Shown here piece by piece: positions 2,180 through 62,665 of a DNA stretch of 64,000 nucleotides. Source of the stretch: Octopus vulgaris (Eukaryota). The DNA lies in assembly GCA_951406725.2 (NCBI GenBank), contig OX597814.1, positions 39,866,001-39,930,000 of the forward strand. The letters run 5' to 3'. Position numbers and translations under genes: made by a program. The first letter of the stretch is position 1. Every line of letters begins with the position of its first letter. Below the pieces are notes generated by a model, which was not told the origin of the DNA, made no database searches, and was given only the letters and a program-made list of their open reading frames with translations.

Positions 2180-3821
2180 CCGTGCCTTAGTGCGGAAATT
2201 TGAAGTTTTACCTACAGAACACCCCGAATAGAATGATACGGAAAACTAAAAATAGATTAGCTAGGTTCTTTAGTAGGATGGGAATGAGCATAATTTTTGA
2301 TAACGAACTTACCAAGGCAAATTTCTTAGAAGTCACACTAAACCTGCATAGCAATTCTTACTGCCCCTACCATAAACCTTCCACAAACCTAAAGTATGCC
2401 AGTGTTTTCTCTAACCACGCAAAAACTATAACAGATAATTTAGTTAAAAATATTTCTCAAAGATTATCAAATTTATCTGCTAACGTCGACATTTTAAAGC
2501 ATAAAGCGGAATTCTATAATGTCGCCCTGTCAAAAGCCGGTTATAGGGATAAGGTAACATATATAGACCCGGCTCTTCCGAAACCAGTATTCTATCAGCA
2601 GGATAAGTAACTTACAATAATATAAATAATATAAGTAGTGATGGTAGCCTTAGGAATGTCGATACAAGAACAACTAACATAAATATAGATAACATAAATA
2701 ATTTGCGGTCCATGGGAGGCCATCGTAGGCCAAAACCCATTATTCAACCCAGAGATACCCCCCTTAATGTTAGAGTTGACTCTCCGAGCCAGTACAAGAA
2801 CAGGAAAAACTATATCTTGTTTGTAATTGCCTTTGGTAAACAAATAAGATCTAAGCTACCGTTATAGTTTCGCCAAGCAATTGCCAGAAATTTTCCCAGA
2901 AATTCGAGATATTACTCCACTGTAAATTCGCACAAAGTAAGGATAGCTTTCTCCAATACTAAAAATCTTACACAGATAATTGCCTCCCATAACAATAAGC
3001 TGCTAAATAAGGCCCTCTCACCCATGAGCAGAGACTCTGCCCCGTCAAATTCCAACATAACGCATAGTAATAATAATAATAATAATAGAAGTAGCACAGA
3101 TATTAGCAGTCTTCATACCAATATTGGAGTTAGTAATAGTAATAAGGATAAGAGCACTGATCTCGTCATTAACGTAGGGAGTCCAAACAATAATATTAGC
3201 AGCGGTTTTAACAACAGTAGTTTTACGGGCATTATCAATCACAGCATTCCCAATAACAGGGAATATGCAGGTGATATTGCCTTAAATAGTAATGATAATG
3301 GGGTGAATAATATCGAATCCAGCGGTAGTTTTTACAACCATCATAGTAATAAGAACGCTGTATTAGTATCGGAAACCAATCCCAATAGATTAAGGTTCTT
3401 ATCTAGTAACTCCAAAATTAGAAACGCCATTTATCAGTGCAGAGTTTATACTGAATCCGATGTCTTTCTTTATATCGGAGCTACTTCATCGAAATTGGTC
3501 ACTAGAATATCGAATCATTTTTCCACGTTCCGAAATAAGGATAAGCAACACGCTACGGGGCTAAGCAAATTAGTCTGGCGTTTGAAGAACGTGAATTCAA
3601 CTTTTAGACTGGAATGGTCAATTTTATCGGTGTCTTTACTGTTTGATAAGGGCAAAAAAATCTGTGCCCTTCGTAACTCAGAACTTTTTCATATTTTGTT
3701 CGCCCGAGGGCAGCTTGTTAACTCGATTGTGCAAAATTGTTTCAGATGCCCCCACTGGAAACGGCATACCGTTTCTCTCATACCAATGAAGTCTAATTTA
3801 GATAATCCCTGGATTTCCTAA
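2180..3821 (+). mobile_element. Penelope-like element, 5'-truncated and frameshifted (RT C-terminus + GIY-YIG endonuclease)
   Basis: NFLEVTLNL..YCPYHKP..SNH thumb region (2200-2610); AIYQCRV..LYIGAT..RISNH..TGLSKLVW..LEWSIL..CPH GIY-YIG domain (3024-3821). Confidence 0.85.
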
Positions 3822-4371
3822 TAAAATTTGAATAAAATTTGAAAGGTGATATCTCATCCCTGTTAGTATAAGAACTACTAGTTGTCAAGAACTGTTGCCA
3901 TCCCTTACAGCAACACTGTATCCTGTCATTGCCAGTGTGGACACCCCCTCTCTCCATTAAGTGGTCACATACGAACACACAGACACGGCTTTTTCTGTTT
4001 CTTGACCGTTAATCCCTGCTGTCTCTCTCTCTTCCTGCCTTCGAAACACACTGTCACACATACAAAGACGCACACACACATACATTAAAGCAATTTCTCA
4101 CACTCAAACACTCTAGCACTCATTCTTAAAATAAATCAAATATAAACACCAGTCATACAGAATACATTCACACTCTTTGATTTTCCTGTACCCCCCTTCT
4201 GCCAACCGGATTCTGACCTTCAACTATCTCAACGGACAATCTCTTCTGCTTTCACCCAGCCTGGCGTCAACGCATATAGATAGAAATTTTGTGTCATTAA
4301 TTTCATGGGCTCCTCGTGAGCGTTTGTCGAAAAGCTTGTTGTGCATTTTGTTGGAGAATTAAGTTCCTGGA

Positions 4372-4455
4372 TTTTCCTGAAGAGAAAGCTGCATAATGGA
4401 CTCCTTATTCAATCGGAATTAGGGACTTTGCAGACTTCGAAACATATGTCGAAAA
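4372..4455 (+). ncRNA. Minimal type I hammerhead ribozyme, canonical core, in PLE 3' region
   Basis: ttttc|CTGAAGA|gaaagctgca..tgcagacttc|GAAA|catat|GTC|gaaaa, with palindromic acatatgt. About 550 nt 3' of the GIY-YIG ORF, same strand. Confidence 0.85.
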
Positions 4456-4502
4456 CAAAATAAAGGAATTTGGTTAAATCTTCGTTCAGCTCCATTCTTT
4501 TA

Positions 4503-10769: not shown

Positions 10770-10809
10770 AAGAAATGATCGGTTTCGCGTTCAGCTTTTC
10801 AAATTTCTT
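10770..10809 (-). ncRNA. Hammerhead-like fold with U3-A8 core variant
   Basis: Minus strand: aagaaat|TTGAAAA|gc tgaac gc|GAAA|ccg|ATC|atttctt, downstream of a PLE GIY-YIG fragment. Stem III has one mismatch. Confidence 0.6.
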
Positions 10810-10899
10810 ACATCGTTATGTTTACGTTGAGTAGAGTTATCTTTATGTTTATGTTGAGTAGAGTTCCAAATAAGGGGAGGTAATAAGTGATTTCTTCCG

Positions 10900-11140
10900 G
10901 TGTAAGGGAGATAATCGCTTAAATTTTTTTGTCTTTCACATTGGTAAAATGGAAAGATTAAAAATTGTGGTAGTAGTTGCTTTGCGCATTTCTCAATGTG
11001 CTCACTAAAGGGTATCATTCTGTATTCTGGGAATGCAATCTGTTGTCGATGCAGTGTGCAGCTACGTCTGAGTGATAGTCCCGTGGATCCCACGTAGTCT
11101 TGGTGGCAGCCCGAGCATTTTATGACATAAATTATGGGAA
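10900..11140 (-). mobile_element. Penelope-like GIY-YIG endonuclease fragment
   Basis: IIYVIKCSGCHQDYVGSTGLSLRRSCTLHRQQI..HIEKCAK; resembles 53100-53427. Confidence 0.8.
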
Positions 11141-12043
11141 TTTCACGTATAACATCTATAAAAAAGCTAAGTTTATAATACATCTCAATACATCTCAACA
11201 TTTCCCTCAAAGCAAACTTTGTTTACATACATCGTAACTAGAATTTCACTTAGCTGTTTGACACACCATTGATTAGCTGTTTGACACACCATACCAGAAT
11301 TTTTTCTCATTGTCAACACAGATCTTGCAACCCGCGAGACTACTTTCTCCTTTGTTTCTTGTCACATTCAGCCTAAACACACCACGCTTAGGTTGCAGTT
11401 TCTTTCTCAATATAATTCTTTCCCGCTTTTTTCTGCCCATTTTCTCAAGTTCGTTTCCTGTCCACCTAACAATATCTATTGCATATCACATTAAGGAAAC
11501 AGCGCATATATTCCTTGCCTTAATCTTGTTCTTTCCTTTGAGAATACTTTCTATATTCATCTGGTTCACCTAAGATATTCTCGTCTAAATCTATCCTTCA
11601 TCTCATTCTCGATTATTTTTCCATATTCTGGAATAACCAGATATTAAATTATTCTACAACAAGTCTAAATCTGTACTTTACGGTAAGAAGAGGCTTAACT
11701 CCAATTTCTCATTTTTCTTTCCGTTTTTCATCACTCTTCTACATTTTACATCAACCTTCTCGTGAACACTCATGCATCATCATCCTGAATTTCAAATATA
11801 ACATATCATGTATTCAGATCTTGAAGATTAATTGGAGACAGAAGGTGTGTTAAAACACCTACCTAGACACGCGTCGTCGCAGAAAGAAGCTATTAGTTGT
11901 TCATCCTCTTACTTTTATACATTAAATGCTATTTAACTCTCGTTGAACGGAGTATAATTTTCTTCATTTTAACTTAAACATCTTCATCTTACTTTAAAGT
12001 ACATAAATAGTAAACTATAAATTAAAACATCAATAAACAAATG

Positions 12044-14657: not shown

Positions 14658-15252
14658 AAACTATGTACTATAATACTATTCCTCAGCCATACCAACAATC
14701 CAACATAACTCCATCATCAGCTGCCCCACAGATATCATTATGTTTTCCAAACCTAAGTAGTACCATTCAATCCAGCGGTGTCAACAGCACTAAAACAAGT
14801 ATTATTTGGAAACAAACAAACCAAAGAAATCACACCTTTCAAACACATCAATCCAATATACAACCGTATCCATAAACAAATTCTATAAGTAAATTACAAC
14901 CCCTCCTAAATACGTAGCTAAACAGCGACTCTATTAAGTCACAAGCAATTATAATGCCTATCGTCTTCCGGAGTGCAATATTAAAGTATAGCTTACTAAC
15001 CACATTAATTCAATCAATAAAGATTAAACACTAACTTTACTAAAATTACAACAAAAGATATTGAAACCAAAGTACATTGTATCGGTATTAATAGAAAACT
15101 GCAATAACTGAATTTCATTATCCAAACACTACATACTCTTTAATATATCATCACTATAAGTTATATATATATATATGTGCGTGTGTGTGTGTGTGTGTGT
15201 GCGTGTTTGTGTGTATATTATGTATGTTTGTAGGAATATATGTATATATATG

Positions 15253-18311: not shown

Positions 18312-18361
<50 letters not shown>

Positions 18362-18689
18362 GCACGCATCCATTTCTAAGTAAGATTGTTCTTAATATTA
18401 ATAATGATGCGCACTCTTAACATTTCGCTCTTCCTCCCTTTCTCAGCCTTCATTCTTTTGGCTTTTCTTTTCTTCTACCTTACTGTCTCTCCCCCCTCTC
18501 TCTCTCTCATTCTTCATTCTTTTCTCTACAACCATTCCTTGTTTCTCTCCCTTTCTCTTACTTCTTCTCCTCCCTCCCGTCGCGGACACGTGATGAGAAA
18601 GCTACTACTGTCTTTCTTCTCCTGGCTACATTTAAGTCGAGACGGCCAATCTGTTGATCCCTCGCCGTTCTCAAAAAATAGCGTTCGTA

Positions 18690-19100
18690 AAAAATTTTAT
18701 CTCGTTCGGCTTAACAGCTCTTCTTGTTTGTGTTACTGTTATTCTCTGTGTCCTGTGTTTTACTGTTCATATGTTGTACTGTCGTTACTGTACTGTTTTT
18801 GTTACCATTTTTTACCCCTCCACCAAAAAATCTCAAATTTTATTGAATTTGATTTTCGCGGGAAGGAAAGTTTCATTAAAGTCATGTATCGCCTTGGCCT
18901 TCGAAACGTGGAGTAGATGAAACAAAGGCGACTGAAGAAGGGGAATTTTCCTTGTTTTGTATGTCCTGTACTCTATTTTTTCGTTGTTTAACAAAAGTAT
19001 CCATTTCCTTGGTTTTGTGTTTATGTTTTCGTTTCTCATTTTGTTCGAGGTTTGTTTTGGATGTCCTGTACCCATTTATGCATGTATATATACATGTAGA
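18690..19100 (+). mobile_element. Non-coding interspersed repeat carrying a permuted hammerhead-like motif (copy A)
   Basis: Homologous to 46590-46880(-): shared ..ctccac.aaaaaatctcaaattt.. and ..atgtcctgtacccat.tatgcatgtata; abuts (TA)n. Confidence 0.7.
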
Positions 19101-19167
19101 GGTAGGTACGTACATATATGTATTTATATATGCATATGTTTTATTTATTTATTAATTTATATCTATA

Positions 19168-19220
<53 letters not shown>

Positions 19221-21774: not shown

Positions 21775-22515
21775 AAGATGGTGAATAAAATAACACTGGA
21801 TGTTTCACTAAAGGTCAAACCTATACCCAGCAGGAAGGATTATATACGAGATCTCTTGTAGAAAACGAACCGATTTATGCGTAGAATACGGTGGAAAGCT
21901 TTCTTTTTCGACAAGGAGCGTAAACATAACGACAAACCTAAACATGGTGAACTACTAAAAAAGTATTCAAATCTAGGAGGAACCTACCGAAAAATCAACA
22001 TCTAACCAGATTTGAAAGAGAATTATATTGTATTGTCAAGAATGTGAATTTCAGGAAGTGCCATAGACGGTGTAATATACATCAGCAGAAAATCAGAAAA
22101 TTACTTGTCGACTTCAAGAAAGCTCCGGGGATATTTGTAGTGGCGGACAAAACAAATAATGGTTACATTGTTGATATTGATCTACATAGGTCTATGATTA
22201 GGAAGGAAATATGCATAAAATATACACATGCTAATAATGACGTATTAAAGAGAATGAACAATACAGGGCTAGAAATCGTCAAAGATCTAACCATTGATGA
22301 TAAAACAGATCGCTACATCCGCCGCAAACCCCGGATTTTCCTTAAGGACCATTAACTTTACTTTCTTATCGATCCCTCAGTTAGATTGATTCGTCCTTCT
22401 AAATCCTTTTAAATATTATTAGTAAAAGTATCATTGACAGGTTAATAGCCGTCCTTAAGTCTAAAATTAGATTAGCCCTCTGGTCTGATACCTAAGAGGT
22501 GGTTGCATGGTTCAA
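21775..22515 (+). mobile_element. Penelope-like element N-terminal/RT-proximal remnant
   Basis: ..SLKVKPIPSRKDY..RFMRRIRWKAFFF..; VVADKTNNGY..IFLKDH; stops and frameshifts. Confidence 0.75.
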
Positions 22516-27799: not shown

Positions 27800-29300
27800 A
27801 AGAATATAATTTGCTTGGTTGCATCAAAGCTAAAATATTTGGATTAAAACTGAGAGCCAATCACATTTTAGAACACACTTTGTAAAAATTATTTTTCCTC
27901 AATAGAACTTGACTCAGGGATGGAGCGGAGGGCATCAACTGTACCTGAAGTCCATCACTGCAGTTGGTCTCTCATCGAAGTAAGGAAGTTTAAGGATACA
28001 CTATTCTGGATCTTCTTAGCTGAAGAACCACACTGTATTGGTAGCTTTGTCTATTGCTTCGCTGCATCTATCTCTTATACGTGTGATCTTATTTTGCACG
28101 TATGTTGCTTTGGCTCTGCTGGCCAGGGATGATTCTTAATGTACAAACAGATTCCTATAGGCCGCTTTCCGAACAATATTCGTGTAGGTGTAGCTTTCCA
28201 CTGTGATCCTGATTTGGTAATCGAGCAGGGAGATTTCCGGACATGTCCGAGTATTCGATTTCAAATTTGATGTGGTTGTCGTCGTCGTTCAAGTTTTGGC
28301 GGTCACCTCTTCCCGGGAGGAGGTGAGCAACAAAATGTCGTCGACGTACACTGGGAATACGGCAGGTGATAAGGGCCATGCGTTCGAGTTGATCCAGAGA
28401 TGGACTAGTGGCCTGAGAGATGGATCCCATCGGCAGACCTGACATCTGCGTATATGATTCACAGTCATATTGGAAGGAAACGTTACCTTCAATAATAACT
28501 AGAAGTTAACGGATGTGGGTAAAACTAAAAAGTTGAGGGTTGGTGAGAGAGGAAGAGGAATAAGAAAGTAGGAGAAAGTGAAGAGGAGTAAGAAGAAAAG
28601 TGTAAAGGAGGAGGGGAAGAAATTAGTGTCAGAAAAGTGGGATTAAAGGAGAGATACGATGCGGTCAGAAATGTTATCGACATCCAGAAGAGCGGGTACG
28701 GAATTATAGAGGGAGACAACGTCTGAGTTGACAGGGTATCGGTTAATCCTGATTACAGAAGAGTCGATACCCTTGATTCTTTTAAAGATCTCCTTGTCAC
28801 TGCCGACATTTCCGTGGAATGCATGAAGTAGAGGTTTGAGGAGTTGAAAGAGAAACGAGGAAATTTTATAAAAGCGGCCGCCAATTCCCGAGACAATAAT
28901 TCTAATTTTAAGATTGGGCCCAGGATTGTGAGTTTTACTAAATGATAAAAAGAGGGAAGGTAGGCATTTTTAGATGTGAAATTGAGTCTAGGATTCTTGG
29001 AGAGCTTTCTGTTATGGCAAAAGATGGGCCAGCAGGTGTAAATTTTGGCTTGAAGCTGATTAGGTGTGATGTGTGATTTTTCGTATAATGTGCTGTCATT
29101 GAGATGTTCGATTGCTAATTTGCCGTAAGTGGACTTACCTATGACACTGAACAACTTTCCCTAGTTTGAGGGTAGGTAGACAAGGTTTTTAGATTGTAAG
29201 TTTTGTAAGGGGAGGTTTTGGGATTTTGTAAGGTTATGTCCTTGAGCGGGGTGATTATCTAGACCGTCAAAATGAATCGTTTAAGTCTAGCTAGTTTGTT
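27800..29300 (-). mobile_element. Penelope-like reverse transcriptase remnant
   Basis: HLNDSTLYEK..LPSFYHLVK.., GLPMGS, YVDDILLL, IKFEIE; fragmented frames. Confidence 0.7.
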
Positions 29301-30039: not shown

Positions 30040-30256
30040 ATGATCTCACACGTATTGAGAAGAGCATTGTCGATGTGAGAACTGTTGCTGCTCATGTATT
30101 TTAATTTAACTTATAAAAAAAAAAGATTTTTTAATGAACGAACTATTGAGTTTGGTTTAATGGCCTACCAATGTATACTATGAGTTTCTTTGCCCTAGGA
30201 GTCGGGAAGACACTCGGCAAGAAATGGAAGCAAATTTGAAAGAAGAAAAAAAAAAG
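30040..30256 (+). mobile_element. 3' end of R4/Dong-like LINE (subfamily B) in (TAA)n
   Basis: Encodes HVLRRALSM*; 3' UTR shared with 41690-41775 and 58770-58866. Confidence 0.7.
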
Positions 30257-30267
30257 TAATAATAATG

Positions 30268-31755
<1,488 letters not shown>

Positions 31756-31786
31756 ATAATAATAATAATAATAATAATAATGCACG

Positions 31787-31859
31787 CGGGCATATAGCGT
31801 AGTGGTTACGAGCGTGGGCTACTAACCCCAAGATTCCGAGTTCGATTCCAGCAGTTACT

Positions 31860-31931
<72 letters not shown>

Positions 31932-32105
31932 TCGAAAAATACCTTAGGAATGAGAATCCAGGTTCGAAATTTCCTCCAGGACGCCTGAAGAAGGCTGGAG
32001 TGTATATCAGCCGAAATTTTGTGTTAACAACAAACTACAAGATGAGGACATATATCCGTCAAATGTAAATAATGTACATAATTCCTCATCTCTCAAATAT
32101 AAAAC
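31787..32105 (+). mobile_element. SINE family C: tRNA-like head + (AAT)n + hammerhead-bearing tail
   Basis: A box tagcgtagtgg (31795-31805), B box gttcgattcc (31840-31849); gacgc|CTGAAGA|a ggctgg..tcagcc|GAAA|tttt|gtgtt at 31980-32025. Confidence 0.75.
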
Positions 32106-46451: not shown

Positions 46452-46490
<39 letters not shown>

Positions 46491-46536
46491 CAATATAAAT
46501 ATATGCATATATATACATATATGAACATACCTACAT

Positions 46537-46589
<53 letters not shown>

Positions 46590-46880
46590 TATACATGCAT
46601 ATATGGGTACAGGACATGACAAAAAAACGTAGACAAAATGAGAAACGTGAACATAAAAACAAAAACAGAGAAAATGAACTTTTTCGAACAACGAAAGAAT
46701 CACACAGACAGAGAAACGAGACAGGCAACATAAAGAACGTTCCCTTCATCAGTTGTCACCTGTTTTATCTACTCTGCCTTTTGAAAGTAGGGACAAGACG
46801 CGACCTCGTTAAACCAGTCCTTCTCGTAAAGCAAATTAAATGAAATTTGAGATTTTTTTGTGGAGGGTGAAAGTGGTAAC
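46590..46880 (-). mobile_element. Non-coding interspersed repeat carrying a permuted hammerhead-like motif (copy B, decayed)
   Basis: Homologous to 18800-19100; abuts (TA)n. Confidence 0.7.
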
Positions 46881-46999
46881 AATTTCGGGCTTACAATATC
46901 TTCATTCGATTTTGTATTCATGCAGTTTTGGCGAAGCAAATCTTGGAATTCAGCCTTTGATAGTCCTATTTAAGTATAATTTAAGCGGGGGAGGTTTAG

Positions 47000-50487: not shown

Positions 50488-53400
50488 CTTCCACAATTAT
50501 GAAACACAATTCATATTAAACCATAAATCCAAAAACCCATTCTTATAAGGACCCACAACACAGACTTCCAATGTCCCCCATAAACACCACCCCAAACCAC
50601 ACCTCAAACACACATACTCTCCAAACCCCCTCTAAACAGGACAAAACCTCCCCCAACCATACAAAAAGCCCACCCCAAAACCTGGATCTCTAATCATTCT
50701 AACACCGCTCCCCCACCGACAAGAACCATCAAGAACCTCCCATGCACTAGGAATTATCTCTCCCTCAATACTCCCCTCTCTCACACTAATAATAAACAAG
50801 GCATCCTACCTACACCGATACATATAATACCCACCCAACGAACCCCTTACAGTCCACCCATCCAACAACCACATTACTACCACATTTCCTACAGATCTCC
50901 AAACCCTCACATCCCACACGAACCCAATCACCACAACTTCATACCCCCCAACATCCTCCCATACAATCTACCATACAAACACCCAAAAACCCACCGCATT
51001 TCTCACAAAACCTTACACCAACACATCCCATACCAACATAAGCACTACAACTATCTACCTCCCCACCCAAAAACACCCCCACTCATACAACCAGAACATT
51101 AATAAACAATACACCCCTTAATTTAACCACCATTTTTTAGACAGAGGAGAAAAATACAAACACCATCTCTAACACAGACCCAAACTAAGAAAACAAAAAT
51201 TATAAACCTATCCAGCAAAACACTGACAACAACCCAAATCAACATCCTAGCAAGAGGTTTGAAATTCACACCCACCCCAAGAACACCCAACCCCCCCCCA
51301 GAAGTAAAGGACGACGTTTCTGAATTCTGCAGAAAACTTCGATTAACAGAAGCTCTGACAGATCTCAACAATGAGGACGATTCATTGATCAACAACAAAA
51401 GTCACTTCCTACCATCAAAAGGAAGAAATAAGGCACTGGACGATTTTTGCAAACACATCCAGCGTCTCCCCTTTACTTCAGACAAAACCAAGGTAAAATC
51501 CAATTTCAATATGGAGGAATGGAAAAACTTACGTGACTTACAACTGGACAAAATCCTTACCATCAAAGAAGCCGACAAAGTGAGCGCTGTGGTCCTTATA
51601 GTTACGGAATTTTATAAACATCTAGTGGTTTCCCTGCTAAACAACAACACCTTCTATGAGGTTATTACAACTATAAACAACAAAAACAATCAAAAACCAC
51701 ACTACACTTATACTCCAACACGGTCAAGGACTCACAGAAAAAAGAAAGGGATTATATCACTAATTTCAAATGCAAGCCTAGCCTTTTTTATGGCCTTCTT
51801 AAAGTCCATAAATACAAATACATCACCAAAATCTGCAAACTCTCCTCTGACATCCACATCAACATCAAAGCACCGGAGGACCTAAAACTAAGGCCCATCG
51901 TGGCTGGCACCTCCTGTGAAACACGCCGCTTGAGTAATTTCCTAGACATCCTTTTGAAACCTTTCCTTACTCACATAAAAGTTTCATTAGGGATGATCTG
52001 GACATGCAAAAACACCTCCCGAAATCAGTAACCGAGGAGGCGCTCCTGGTATCCTTTGATGTCATCAACCTCTACACCAACATCCCACATAAATATAGTA
52101 TTGAGGCAATTGATTTCTGGCTAGAAAAAAACCCAGAGACATTCCCTGACCGCATCCACAAGACCTTTATTACGGAATCACTCAAGTTCATTCTGACAAA
52201 CAATTATTTCCTCTTCAATAACACACACTACCATAAAAAATGTGGTATTGCGATGGGTACCAAGGCTGCACCAGCCCTTGCGAACCTCATAATGAGCTTC
52301 TTCGAACTATCACTCTATGAAATATCACGCCAGAAATTTGGACGTTTTCCACACCTACCTAATGGAAAACTGGAAAAGTTATATTGATGATTGTTTCATC
52401 ATATGGAAAGAATCTTATGAAAAGCTTCTGGAATTCAAAAGCATACTGAACAACATACATCCCAACATCCAATTCACTATGGAATGCAGCAAACAACATC
52501 TCCCTTTTTCCATGATCTCCTAGTTATAAAAACACCTAAGAACCAAATCATAACAGACATCTACCACAAACTTTCAGACTCACAACAATACCTCCTCTTT
52601 AGTTCATGCCACCCAAAACACACCAAGACAAATATCCCTCTCAAATTAGCTAAAAGGGTATGCACCATTGTCTCGGATCCAAAAACTCGAGAAATACGCA
52701 TTCAAGACCTCAAAAAACACTATTACAACGCCAATATCCCTCCACCCTTATAGAGTATGGAATAAAACGCACCAAAGAACTTGACAACATTACACTGAAA
52801 ACAACCCAACCCAACAACACACACAACCCCAAAATACTTCCATACATTTCCACCCACAACCCCAAAACTACCGAAGCATACACCACAATCATACAAAATC
52901 TCACTCTACTGTCAACAGATCTAAAATTATAAATACACACAAAATCCTCAAATGTAAAAGGCAACACAAATCTTTAAAAAAACTGTTGACAAATGCCACA
53001 TCCACTCCCAGCAGTTAAAAAATGTGCACGCCCAAACTGTGGCACCTGCCCCTTCCTACTTGAAGGCTCTGAATTCATCTTCAAACAAGGAACGAAGTTT
53101 AAAATCAAGATCAACTTCTCCTGTTCCTCCGAGAACCTTATCTACGTTCTCACATGCGCCGGTTGCCAACACAATTATGTTGGACAAACGAGCCTCCCTT
53201 TACGTAAAGGTGTAGCGATCCATAAAAAATAAATAAATCTCCCGGAATACCGGCAAATTCCACTGAGTCGCCACATAGACTCATGCGCTAAAGACAAAAA
53301 TCTCAAATTTTACATATTACCCTTCTGCCAATGTAAAGACGGAATCACCACACAGGTGAGAATTAACAAGGAGAATCTCTTTATTGAAAAATTCAAAACG

Positions 53401-55030: not shown

Positions 55031-55719
55031 GCCCTGATGCAGTACCAGGCAGTGGTTCTCATGGCTTCTGATCTTTACTGATTGGAAGTGTTTTCATGTA
55101 CATTGTTTTGTCTTGGTATAAAAGATGGGCTACAGCAAATATTCTGCTCTATACCACAGATTATGCCCCGATGCAGTACCAGGCAGTGGCTCTCATGGCT
55201 TCTGATCTTAACTGATTGGAAGTGTTATCATGTACATTATTTTGTCTTGGTATAAAAGATGGGCTACAGCAAATATTCTGCTCAATACCACAGATTTGCT
55301 TGTCAGTTGTTTGACCGTAACCAGTTAAGCATGTCCCTTAGTGGCTGACGATATGTGCATCTCTGATCACGAGCAGAAGTAGTGGGGAAGCATCATAGCC
55401 ATGTGTTGAGAGGGACTCTTTGGGGGTTTGAATAATTCACCTCTGGAAACATGGGTGGTTCTTTCAACATCCTTAAACAACCATTATTCAGGGGCCTTTT
55501 GAGTGGGATGTGCTACTCAACCTGAAGAAAATTCTAACTGGTCCCCACCTGCAAGGTCATGTGCTGTTTATCTTGATATGAAAACACCATGTCGCGCACA
55601 TATGGTTGTGATGCATGTGCCTGATGTACCCTTATCAGACGGGTAGTCATGATGTGTATATTGGGCTTCGTATATTTTACCCCAGTATCACTTTGATGGC
55701 ATGAACTGCTCTCTCACTC

Positions 55720-61987: not shown

Positions 61988-62410
61988 CGTGGTACGAGCA
62001 CAAACTTCAGAGTGTAGCAATATACAGTCACCGGAAGTAACTTGCACGGACACCGGAAATACATCTGCCATCACCAGAGAAAACAAAGCAACTACCTCCA
62101 GCGACTTGCCTGACCTTTCATTGGACAAAAGCTACCTACCTGCTATTCTATTGGACACTGGCTAAACATCACTGCTGATATTTTTGTATAAATAGACATC
62201 ATAAATCGCTGTAAAGGCAGTTGGCTTTTTGGATCTCGACCGATGTAAATCGTGTCCCTCTCGTCTGCCACGCTCGCCACTCACGCCGCCTCGAACATTT
62301 GTACTGCCATTTCACGCCTGAAATAAATCGCTGTATAAACTTACACCTCTTGTCTGCTCGTCATTTCAACTACTGCTTTCGTCTGTCCAGTTTTGCTGAT
62401 TACGACCACA
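61988..62410 (+). mobile_element. Solo-LTR-like block
   Basis: Two attgg (CCAAT) boxes, tataaata (~62187), cagtt ~30 nt downstream, aataaa (62322), ends gaccaCA. Start (cgtggt at 61988 or tgtag at 62013) uncertain; no TSD seen. Confidence 0.5.
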
Positions 62411-62665
62411 GTCCTTTTCAGGGCTAATTCAAGTCTGATCTGAATCCGATAACAGTCCTTTTTAGGACTACTCTGAGATCCGATCTAATTTCGATAACAG
62501 TCCTTTTTAAGACTATTCTTGGACCGGATCTGAATGTGATAACAGTCCTTTTTAGGACTACTCTCAGATCCGATCTAATTACGATAACAGTACATTTTAG
62601 GACTATTCTTGGATCGGATCTAATTGCGATAACCGTTCTTTTAAGGGCTACCCTCAGATCAGACC
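62408..62665. repeat. 45-bp minisatellite, ~6 units
   Basis: Units start at 62408, 62452, 62497, 62542, 62587 and 62632 (acagtcctttttaggacta..gatc..gatct..gata). Confidence 0.9.

Follow-up and report, generated by a model that had tools for sequence, protein, structure and literature searches.

Window positions 18815-18943 (the window is the whole 64,000-nt stretch of Octopus vulgaris DNA analysed here, to which all coordinates refer) probably hold an active hammerhead ribozyme with a split core, for which self-cleavage is predicted after A18888. The motif spans 129 nt and all the core nucleotides of the hammerhead are present on covarying helices, in the 5′ to 3′ order X′-Y-II-P4′-III′-UH(cut)-I′-II′-GAAA-III-P4-I-CUGANGA-X. 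It is a real topological variant of a known ribozyme, found in a Penelope/retrozyme-like family, and its fold is supported by covariation. According to the initial annotation, a pseudoknotted hammerhead with its strands in a non-circular order lies at the centre of a multi-copy animal mobile element and would be cut 3′ of A18888; our reading retains that proposal, including the predicted cut. The parts of the ribozyme are as follows:

18815-18819, forward strand: 5′ strand of helix X, which pairs with 18939-18943 and closes the ribozyme; two of six pairs changed on both sides
18820-18861, forward strand: hairpin Y, with an A-C mismatch at the third pair in this copy
18862-18866, forward strand: 5′ strand of stem II (the leader), with G10.1 at 18862; five Watson-Crick pairs with 18898-18902
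18870-18877, forward strand: 5′ strand of helix P4, which pairs with 18916-18923
18882-18888, forward strand: strand III′ (18882-18887) and the triplet GUA (18886-18888); predicted cut 3′ of A18888
18889-18895, forward strand: strand I′, which pairs with 18925-18931
18898-18911, forward strand: strand II′ (18898-18902), GAAA core (18903-18906) and the stem III strand (18906-18911), from sequence and covariation
18916-18931, forward strand: 3′ strand of P4 (18916-18923) and the stem I strand (18925-18931), from covariation and subfamily majorities
18932-18943, forward strand: CUGAAGA core (18932-18938), followed directly by the 3′ strand of helix X (18939-18943), from sequence and covariation

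In this fold, the catalytic strand is broken between A9 and G10.1, and X and Y abut these two nucleotides directly; hairpin Y takes up the whole stretch from X′ to G10.1, leaving no linker on either side. Because stem II is supplied by the upstream leader, the catalytic strand is split at the A9/G10.1 step and the RNA is not of type SGC, one of the six block orders defined by Eckert et al. (2023; PMC10085705; used here and below from excerpts of the article and its supplement), who assume that block C (I-CUGANGA-II) is unbroken. Helix X has 4-7 bp in 15 of the 15 subfamily majorities described below and is almost invariant within the repeat family (3 bp in the local Naiad element); in the automatic parse of X and Y, a one-base slip occurred in J2 and decayed bases were met in subfamily I. 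Stem III has 5-7 bp across subfamilies and is not a short palindrome, and P4 is the equivalent of the helix that bridges stems I and II in hammerheads of types SGC and CSG. By eye, a putative kink-turn between III and P4 looks standard in Naiad and J-type sequences, but not in subfamily A.

The initial annotation had bounded the motif at 18882-18943 and had placed the three core strands, in the order cleavage block, GAAA block and CUGAAGA block, where they are indeed found; its stem I of 7 bp and stem III of 6 bp were likewise confirmed in the sequence. The motif itself starts 67 nt further upstream, at 18815, and the weak 4-bp stem II drawn there (gggg with cttc) is superseded, since the strand before GAAA pairs far better with the leader at 18862-18866. 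As drawn, the fold would be type SGC (Eckert et al., 2023; PMC10085705, as excerpted), and a construct limited to 18882-18943, which leaves out G10.1, would be expected to show weak activity or none. The annotation correctly set the order apart from hammerhead types I, II and III, as neither their cyclic order (CUGANGA, GAAA, UH) nor their Rfam model is matched, and its mention of natural non-circular permutations agrees with the description of such forms in the same excerpts (Eckert et al., 2023; PMC10085705).

A split-core descriptor found 18888 as its sole site in the 64-kb window and had no match in 200 shuffles. The search with permuted-order descriptors that the annotation had suggested, run with all six orders, also found this site, in SGC order (stems 7/4/6), along with one weak 4/4/4 match in GCS order elsewhere in the window; 60 dinucleotide shuffles gave no match. 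An Rfam search of the whole window returned no family at gathering score. Pseudoknot-free folding of constructs without X′ and most of Y gave an ordinary stability (z from -0.93 to +0.68) and drew the CUGANGA strand into competing hairpins formed with the U-rich tail.

To describe conservation, 313 motif instances were collected in the loci, of which the 227 with an intact leader were clustered, giving 17 clusters of at least two members, and 47 singletons were set aside; the 15 subfamilies used here comprise 14 clusters and subfamily I, whose 4-5 copies were chosen by motif. Over the motif, copies diverge on average by 0-5% from their subfamily majority, a range biased low because many of the loci are best hits. 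CUGANGA, GAAA, A15.1-U16.1 and C11.1 are unchanged in all 15 majorities and the pair G10.1-C11.1 is kept; the cleavage triplet is GUA, GUC, GUU or AUA, so that each majority carries NUH, H17 is never G, and N7 is A or U. The conservation of CUGANGA, GAAA and UH across family copies, on which the initial annotation had staked its claim, is therefore present in every subfamily majority, and with it the complete hammerhead core.

Covariation was scored on a MAFFT alignment of 19 natural copies, the rows of which are related and were picked near their majority; the counts use a structure read from the same rows. Stem I is paired in 96% of cells, with five of six pairs changed on both sides, stem III in 96% (four of five pairs) and P4 in 78% (seven of nine pairs, with rows H and I displaced by one column). 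For these three helices no shuffle out of 500 equalled the real alignment in percentage, pair count, cell count or score, although in further pair types the alignment did not exceed the shuffles. Four of the five base pairs of hairpin Y changed on both sides among subfamilies, and X, Y and II combined are 88% paired, with 28 cells changed on both sides (0/500 shuffles equal). On a tree built from the flanks, varying pairs change one to five times, mostly one to three; with related rows lying near their majorities, this means that the number of covariation events is modest. All three core-flanking helices thus covary. The annotation had asked for such a check of its own three helices: stems I and III covary as drawn, and stem II does so through the leader, its tail version being mostly G-U.

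The choice of stem II bears on a plain type-SGC hammerhead, in which the G run after CUGANGA would pair with the strand before GAAA and the leader pairing would be an off-state. With the leader (18862-18866/18898-18902), stem II is 97% paired and nine cells are changed on both sides, which none of 500 shuffles equalled. The tail version can also pair in 97% of 74 cells, rows B and B2 having been shifted in its favour, but mostly as G-U; three cells change on both sides, two of the four pairs are G-U, and subfamilies B and B2 lose the fourth pair. Across 223 of the 227 copies, 1030/1115 leader cells are Watson-Crick, as compared to 394/1115 (with 422 more as G-U) for the tail. The same stem II pair flipped in two separate lineages of the tree, B2 and H/I; in B2, where this is pair 10.4-11.4, position 11.4 changes along with the leader and not with the tail, and in six B2-type copies the leader pairs in 6/6 and the tail in 1/6. 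A type-SGC fold does agree with the extra A followed by G10.1-C11.1, which is the pattern of Penelope hammerheads (PMC4209133), and with the 2-nt I′-II′ linker, as found in type SGC (PMC10085705, as excerpted). However, the G run has a Watson-Crick partner of its own in X′, and none of the excerpted Naiad tails (see below) has, by eye, a strand after CUGANGA from which stem II could be made. A type-SGC fold that uses the G run for stem II was rejected, and we regard it as very unlikely to be the functional one.

Other candidates were also tried and set aside. A helix between leader purines and pyrimidines 3′ of the G run had a covariation score that was also reached in 190 of 500 shuffles. A local hairpin downstream of CUGANGA, in the role of stem II, showed no change on both sides, and for an origin of the GAAA block as a Pol III B-box, T runs count against Pol III transcription. 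As a separate observation, splice-donor-like GTAAGT/GTAAGA sequences occur in the unit (window 18378-18386, coordinates given together with 18850-18862; loci L052, L250 and L240), and a polypyrimidine-YAG, acceptor-like end lies exactly 5′ of G10.1 in subfamilies D, E, F, J and K. Splicing at that end would take out X′ and Y; in the Penelope element of D. virilis an intron ends at its hammerhead (PMC4209133).

The split-core motif is carried by an interspersed repeat, for which the window holds the following features:

18360-19168, forward strand: ORF-less repeat copy of subfamily A, about 810 nt (about one tandem unit), from BLAST and alignment to 30 genomic copies
18313-18359, no strand: (TA)n run at the 5′ junction, from sequence
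19169-19220, no strand: (TA)n run at the 3′ junction, the likely target and priming site, from sequence
46460-46882, reverse strand: 5′-truncated, decayed copy of subfamily B, core C3 at 46752, G12 lost (73% identity; family alignment)

The copy at 18360-19168 runs through the predicted cut site. The multi-copy, interspersed nature of the family, claimed from the start, is evident from the genome (2.8 Gb, 227 contigs searched), where 40 of 40 scored matches to 18860-18960 have 97-100% identity. Exact patterns, which give lower bounds, yield at least 2,291 core matches genome-wide: at least 920 to one GAAA-linker pattern (control 0) and at least 1,371 to a disjoint core pattern (control 8); a third, overlapping pattern has at least 161 (control 8) and a downstream 26-mer at least 2,246. 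The repeat is also present in contigs of sequencing runs from organisms labelled A, B, C and D. Other copies have the right end in common and the left end cut at varying places, and several extend into another unit or include a piece in inverted orientation; such inverted 5′ pieces were counted in 38 of 98 copies, a figure that may include low-complexity false positives. The 3′ ends of 71 of 97 copies fall at +260 to +279 from the cut and 13 at +300 to +319, and a TA run follows the 3′ end in 71/97. Head-to-tail units of 749-898 nt were found in subfamilies A, B, E and K. Subfamily K (L245/L477, L476), with near-identical 898-nt tandem units at 1.5% divergence, is the youngest sampled.

We found no conserved ORF in the unit nor, in the loci examined, any RT or endonuclease frame linked to it. 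A search for an autonomous partner (tblastn of ten RT/endonuclease pieces from the window, together with ORF scans, over loci L001-L110, L231-L350 and L471-L486) gave scattered, unlinked insertions, and in these loci no sequence was found in common with the terminal repeat of such a partner. The unit thus has the ORF-less tandem organisation with one hammerhead of non-LTR retrozymes, without their type I hammerhead and 170-400 nt monomer; it has the Penelope-like traits of 5′ truncation, partial tandems, inverted 5′ pieces and microsatellite targets, without the Naiad ORF, which joins an N-terminal GIY-YIG endonuclease to an RT. The carrier is a Penelope/retrozyme-like, (TA)n-inserted, ORF-less tandem unit.

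If the RNA is cut, the 5′ ends of genomic copies may record it. We sampled the first 100 listed of the 2,246 anchor matches, all on one contig (C1) and 98 of them distinct; the anchor lies 136 nt 3′ of the cut, and the point where each copy stops upstream was mapped. Of 72 copies at risk, 16 stop at -1 to +14, where 2.8 are expected from the background rate (p 1.4e-8; because this window was chosen after looking, a best-window simulation was used, which gave 0.0002), and 0 of 56 stop at -2 to -59 (7.5 expected). In an independent GAAA-anchored sample (90 position-ordered of 920), 34 copies start at 0 to +13 and eight in -2 to -30. Separately, 22 of 90 G-anchored copies still match the split-core descriptor. 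The pile-up of 5′ ends fits templates with a 5′ end made at the predicted bond and is thus indirect support, drawn from genomic sequence, for cleavage in vivo. Contig depth dips near the site in all eight sequencing runs, three large ones of unrecorded kind among them; the contigs of these runs, none on record as RNA, show neither molecule ends nor circle joints and speak neither for nor against expression.

The same pile-up could arise from a conserved fold that cuts negligibly or not at all, through an element recognised by, or stalling, the reverse transcriptase, or through a coincident transcription start. Such a reading could draw on the absence of a break at A9/G10.1 from descriptions in the literature examined, part of which was used as excerpts, and on the position of the peak, which lies 2-13 nt 3′ of the site and not on it. 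Yet the peak stops at the predicted bond, and an enzyme moving 3′ to 5′ would first meet the fold near +55, where the breakpoint hazard is at background. Moreover, the catalytic bases, A15.1-U16.1 and G10.1-C11.1 are kept while the helices turn over, and H17 is never G. We consider a fold of this kind unlikely. Less likely again, and in our view extremely so, is a genuine ribozyme that works only between two copies, as tandem halves or in trans: tandem units are common, and minimal Penelope hammerheads act as dimers (PMC4209133), but here all six helices close inside the 129 nt of one copy and stem III, at 5-7 bp, is no short palindrome. The split core acting within one copy remains the preferred reading.

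The same fold recurs in the window in unrelated sequence, at the end of a second type of element:

14660-14840, reverse strand: 3′ end, in decayed form, of a Naiad-type octopus element that has the split-core fold, core C3 at 14720

This segment matches the 3′ ends published for Naiad_Obim and Naiad_Ovul (PMC8557442, here and below from excerpts of the article and supplement). The Naiad-type 3′ end as a whole (14660-15140, reverse strand) is AT-rich and terminates at (TA)n, with 1,584 first-look candidates genome-wide. The octopus Naiad tail is a decayed genomic family, in which 8 of 30 loci match the split-core descriptor, with X and Y short. An RT piece matched 0 of the 30 Naiad-tail loci within 1.5 kb, and five Naiad endonuclease loci did not extend to a ribozyme. 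No homology was detected between the ORF-less unit and the local Naiad tail, so that what the two share is the fold.

Naiads were reported to be without canonical hammerheads, although cores and unfoldable 'half cores' were flagged, in the excerpts at hand, by Craig et al. (2021; PMC8557442). By eye, we could fold stems I, II, III, P4, X and Y in nine of the 54 Naiad consensus records (PMC8557442): Bfor, 3_Chem, Amil, Aacu, Anas, 2_Movir, Plae, Obim and Ovul, the names having been deduced from the header that follows each supplement passage and from the order of the table. Bfor is from a ctenophore, with a stem I of only 2 bp and a long P4; 3_Chem, Amil, Aacu, Anas and 2_Movir are cnidarian, the three coral records being near identical; Plae is acanthocephalan; and Obim and Ovul are near identical to each other. 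In all nine tails, again by eye, the bases after CUGANGA do not provide stem II. A tenth supplement passage (near part 13) folds by eye as an unsplit type CSG with the bridging helix; it is probably a record from the nematode Pristionchus. Only two sequences of type CSG, both metagenomic, are known (PMC10085705, as excerpted). The unit described here resembles the excerpted Naiads in (TA)n targeting, 5′ truncation, partial tandems, inverted 5′ pieces and the split-core fold in the 3′ UTR, and differs in being without an ORF and without detected similarity to the local Naiad tail.

The window contains further retroelement sequences. We take the frames at 2191-4500 (forward strand) to be Penelope-like RT-end and GIY-YIG frames, families recognised from their motifs; a Pfam search of these frames gave no match. 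After them, at about 4370-4457 (forward strand), a type I hammerhead of canonical form can be drawn by eye; its stem III is palindromic and it has the extra base after A9. Penelope-like RT/endonuclease fragments lie at 10791-11222 (reverse), 21951-22355 (forward), 28753-29160 (reverse) and 51127-52387 (forward), the last with a weak RVT_1 match at 51938. An ORF end of R4/Dong or Hero-like type (zf-RVT) lies between (AAT)n runs at 30240-32030 (forward) and is followed at 31985 by a canonical-order CUGANGA-stem II-GAAA motif, of which a better kept, type III hammerhead-like relative is found at L097:4054-4130. Two repeat copies with CUGACGA lie upstream of R4/Dong-like fragments at 55345 and 60830 (forward), and a 45/90-nt tandem repeat occupies 62408-62660.

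Compared with known hammerheads, the split-core wiring matches none of the six permutations that Eckert et al. (2023; PMC10085705, as excerpted) define and is yet a circular permutant of the SGC/CSG ring. With types SGC and CSG it shares the reversed cyclic block order, the pseudoknotted stems, an I′-II′ linker of 2-3 nt and a fourth helix (P4 here), which in those types links the sequence following stem II with the sequence preceding stem I; the SGC order applies to the I-CUGANGA half of block C. It differs in that block C is split and the chain opens in the added helix X with hairpin Y: the stem II strand of SGC directly 3′ of CUGANGA is missing, and I-CUGANGA stands at the 3′ end, whereas CSG begins with I-CUGANGA-II at the 5′ end, followed by S and G. 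In the same excerpts, SGC and CSG come from metatranscriptomes and metagenomes and neither type is found in genomes of known organisms (PMC10085705), in contrast to a split core in a high-copy animal retroelement. The hammerheads of Penelope-like elements also lie in the terminal repeat of the element and also have an insertion between positions 9 and 10.1, but it is a single base in a canonical order acting as a dimer (PMC4209133), whereas here two helices hold the chain ends. Pseudoknot (pistol-like) hammerheads share a stem II made through a pseudoknot and an extra helix; in the excerpts of Zhan et al. (2024; PMC11300833) they keep the core order and continuity of a standard-form circular permutant, with only stem II re-wired.

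Non-LTR retrozymes, as excerpted (Cervera and de la Pena, 2020; PMC7229834; Li et al., 2026; 10.64898/2026.07.22.740005), are likewise ORF-less tandems of low GC with one hammerhead per unit and a proposed Penelope-dependent spread through circles, but their units are of 170-400 nt with type I hammerheads, as against 750-900 nt with a split core here; unlike them, the copies here are dispersed, in one to two units. A split-core hammerhead, or a non-circular hammerhead in an animal retroelement, was absent from the full-text, largely open-access literature searched, and likewise from the excerpts of PMC13282606, PMC13725137, PMC10162972 and 10.64898/2026.07.22.740005; the excerpted supplement of Eckert et al. 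(PMC10085705) nowhere mentions octopus or molluscs. A metagenome scan with a loose G-to-C pattern gave at least 120 stretches; among the 120 listed, none fits the six-order or the split-core descriptor.

The A9/G10.1 step of the hammerhead is a metal site, formed by the A9 phosphate and the N7 of G10.1, and both groups are kept in the split core. The same step takes a one-base insertion in Penelope hammerheads (PMC4209133), and this tolerance makes it a plausible place for the chain to exit. Tandem duplication can circularly permute a ring (PMC10085705, as excerpted), which offers a route between CSG and the split core. In the mechanism we propose, X and Y would hold the two core halves together and P4 would tie the far ends of stems I and II, and read-through transcripts would be cut at the ribozyme. 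From a single copy, the cut RNA would run from the cut to a (UA)n tail about 270 nt on, and target-primed reverse transcription at (TA)n could then give short, leaderless copies starting at +0 to +13; since these are without the upstream strands, their ribozyme can no longer fold. From tandem copies, cutting would give monomers of 750-900 nt, likely circularised, and copying round the circle or over an uncut multimer could produce those copies, observed in the genome, that run through the cut and are in some cases longer than one unit, and these would keep the family alive. Copying of the ORF-less repeat probably depends on the reverse transcriptase of a Penelope-like element, possibly a Naiad. 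In this scheme the cleavage, the circles and the choice of enzyme are inferred; spread of retrozymes through circular templates was proposed earlier (PMC7229834, as excerpted).

Taken at its widest, the reading is that the discontinuous-strand hammerhead is an active and ancient form, a permutant of CSG and the ribozyme that Naiads from ctenophores to octopuses supposedly lacked, and that it drives a large, ORF-less, circular-RNA retroelement family; we find this rather likely. If true, a seventh wiring would stand beside the six of Eckert and co-authors, with a core that can be built from two strands split at the metal-binding step A9/G10.1, and non-circular permutations, so far met in metatranscriptome contigs of no named source, would gain a place in the genomes of animals, where many diverged natural variants exist. 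As standard descriptors and Rfam models miss the split core, ribozyme censuses of invertebrate genomes undercount. The breakpoint pattern provides a genomic read-out of the role of the cut in retrotransposition, an open question in the field. The statement that Naiads lack hammerheads would be overturned, and the ribozyme would be near-universal in endonuclease-bearing Penelope-like elements.
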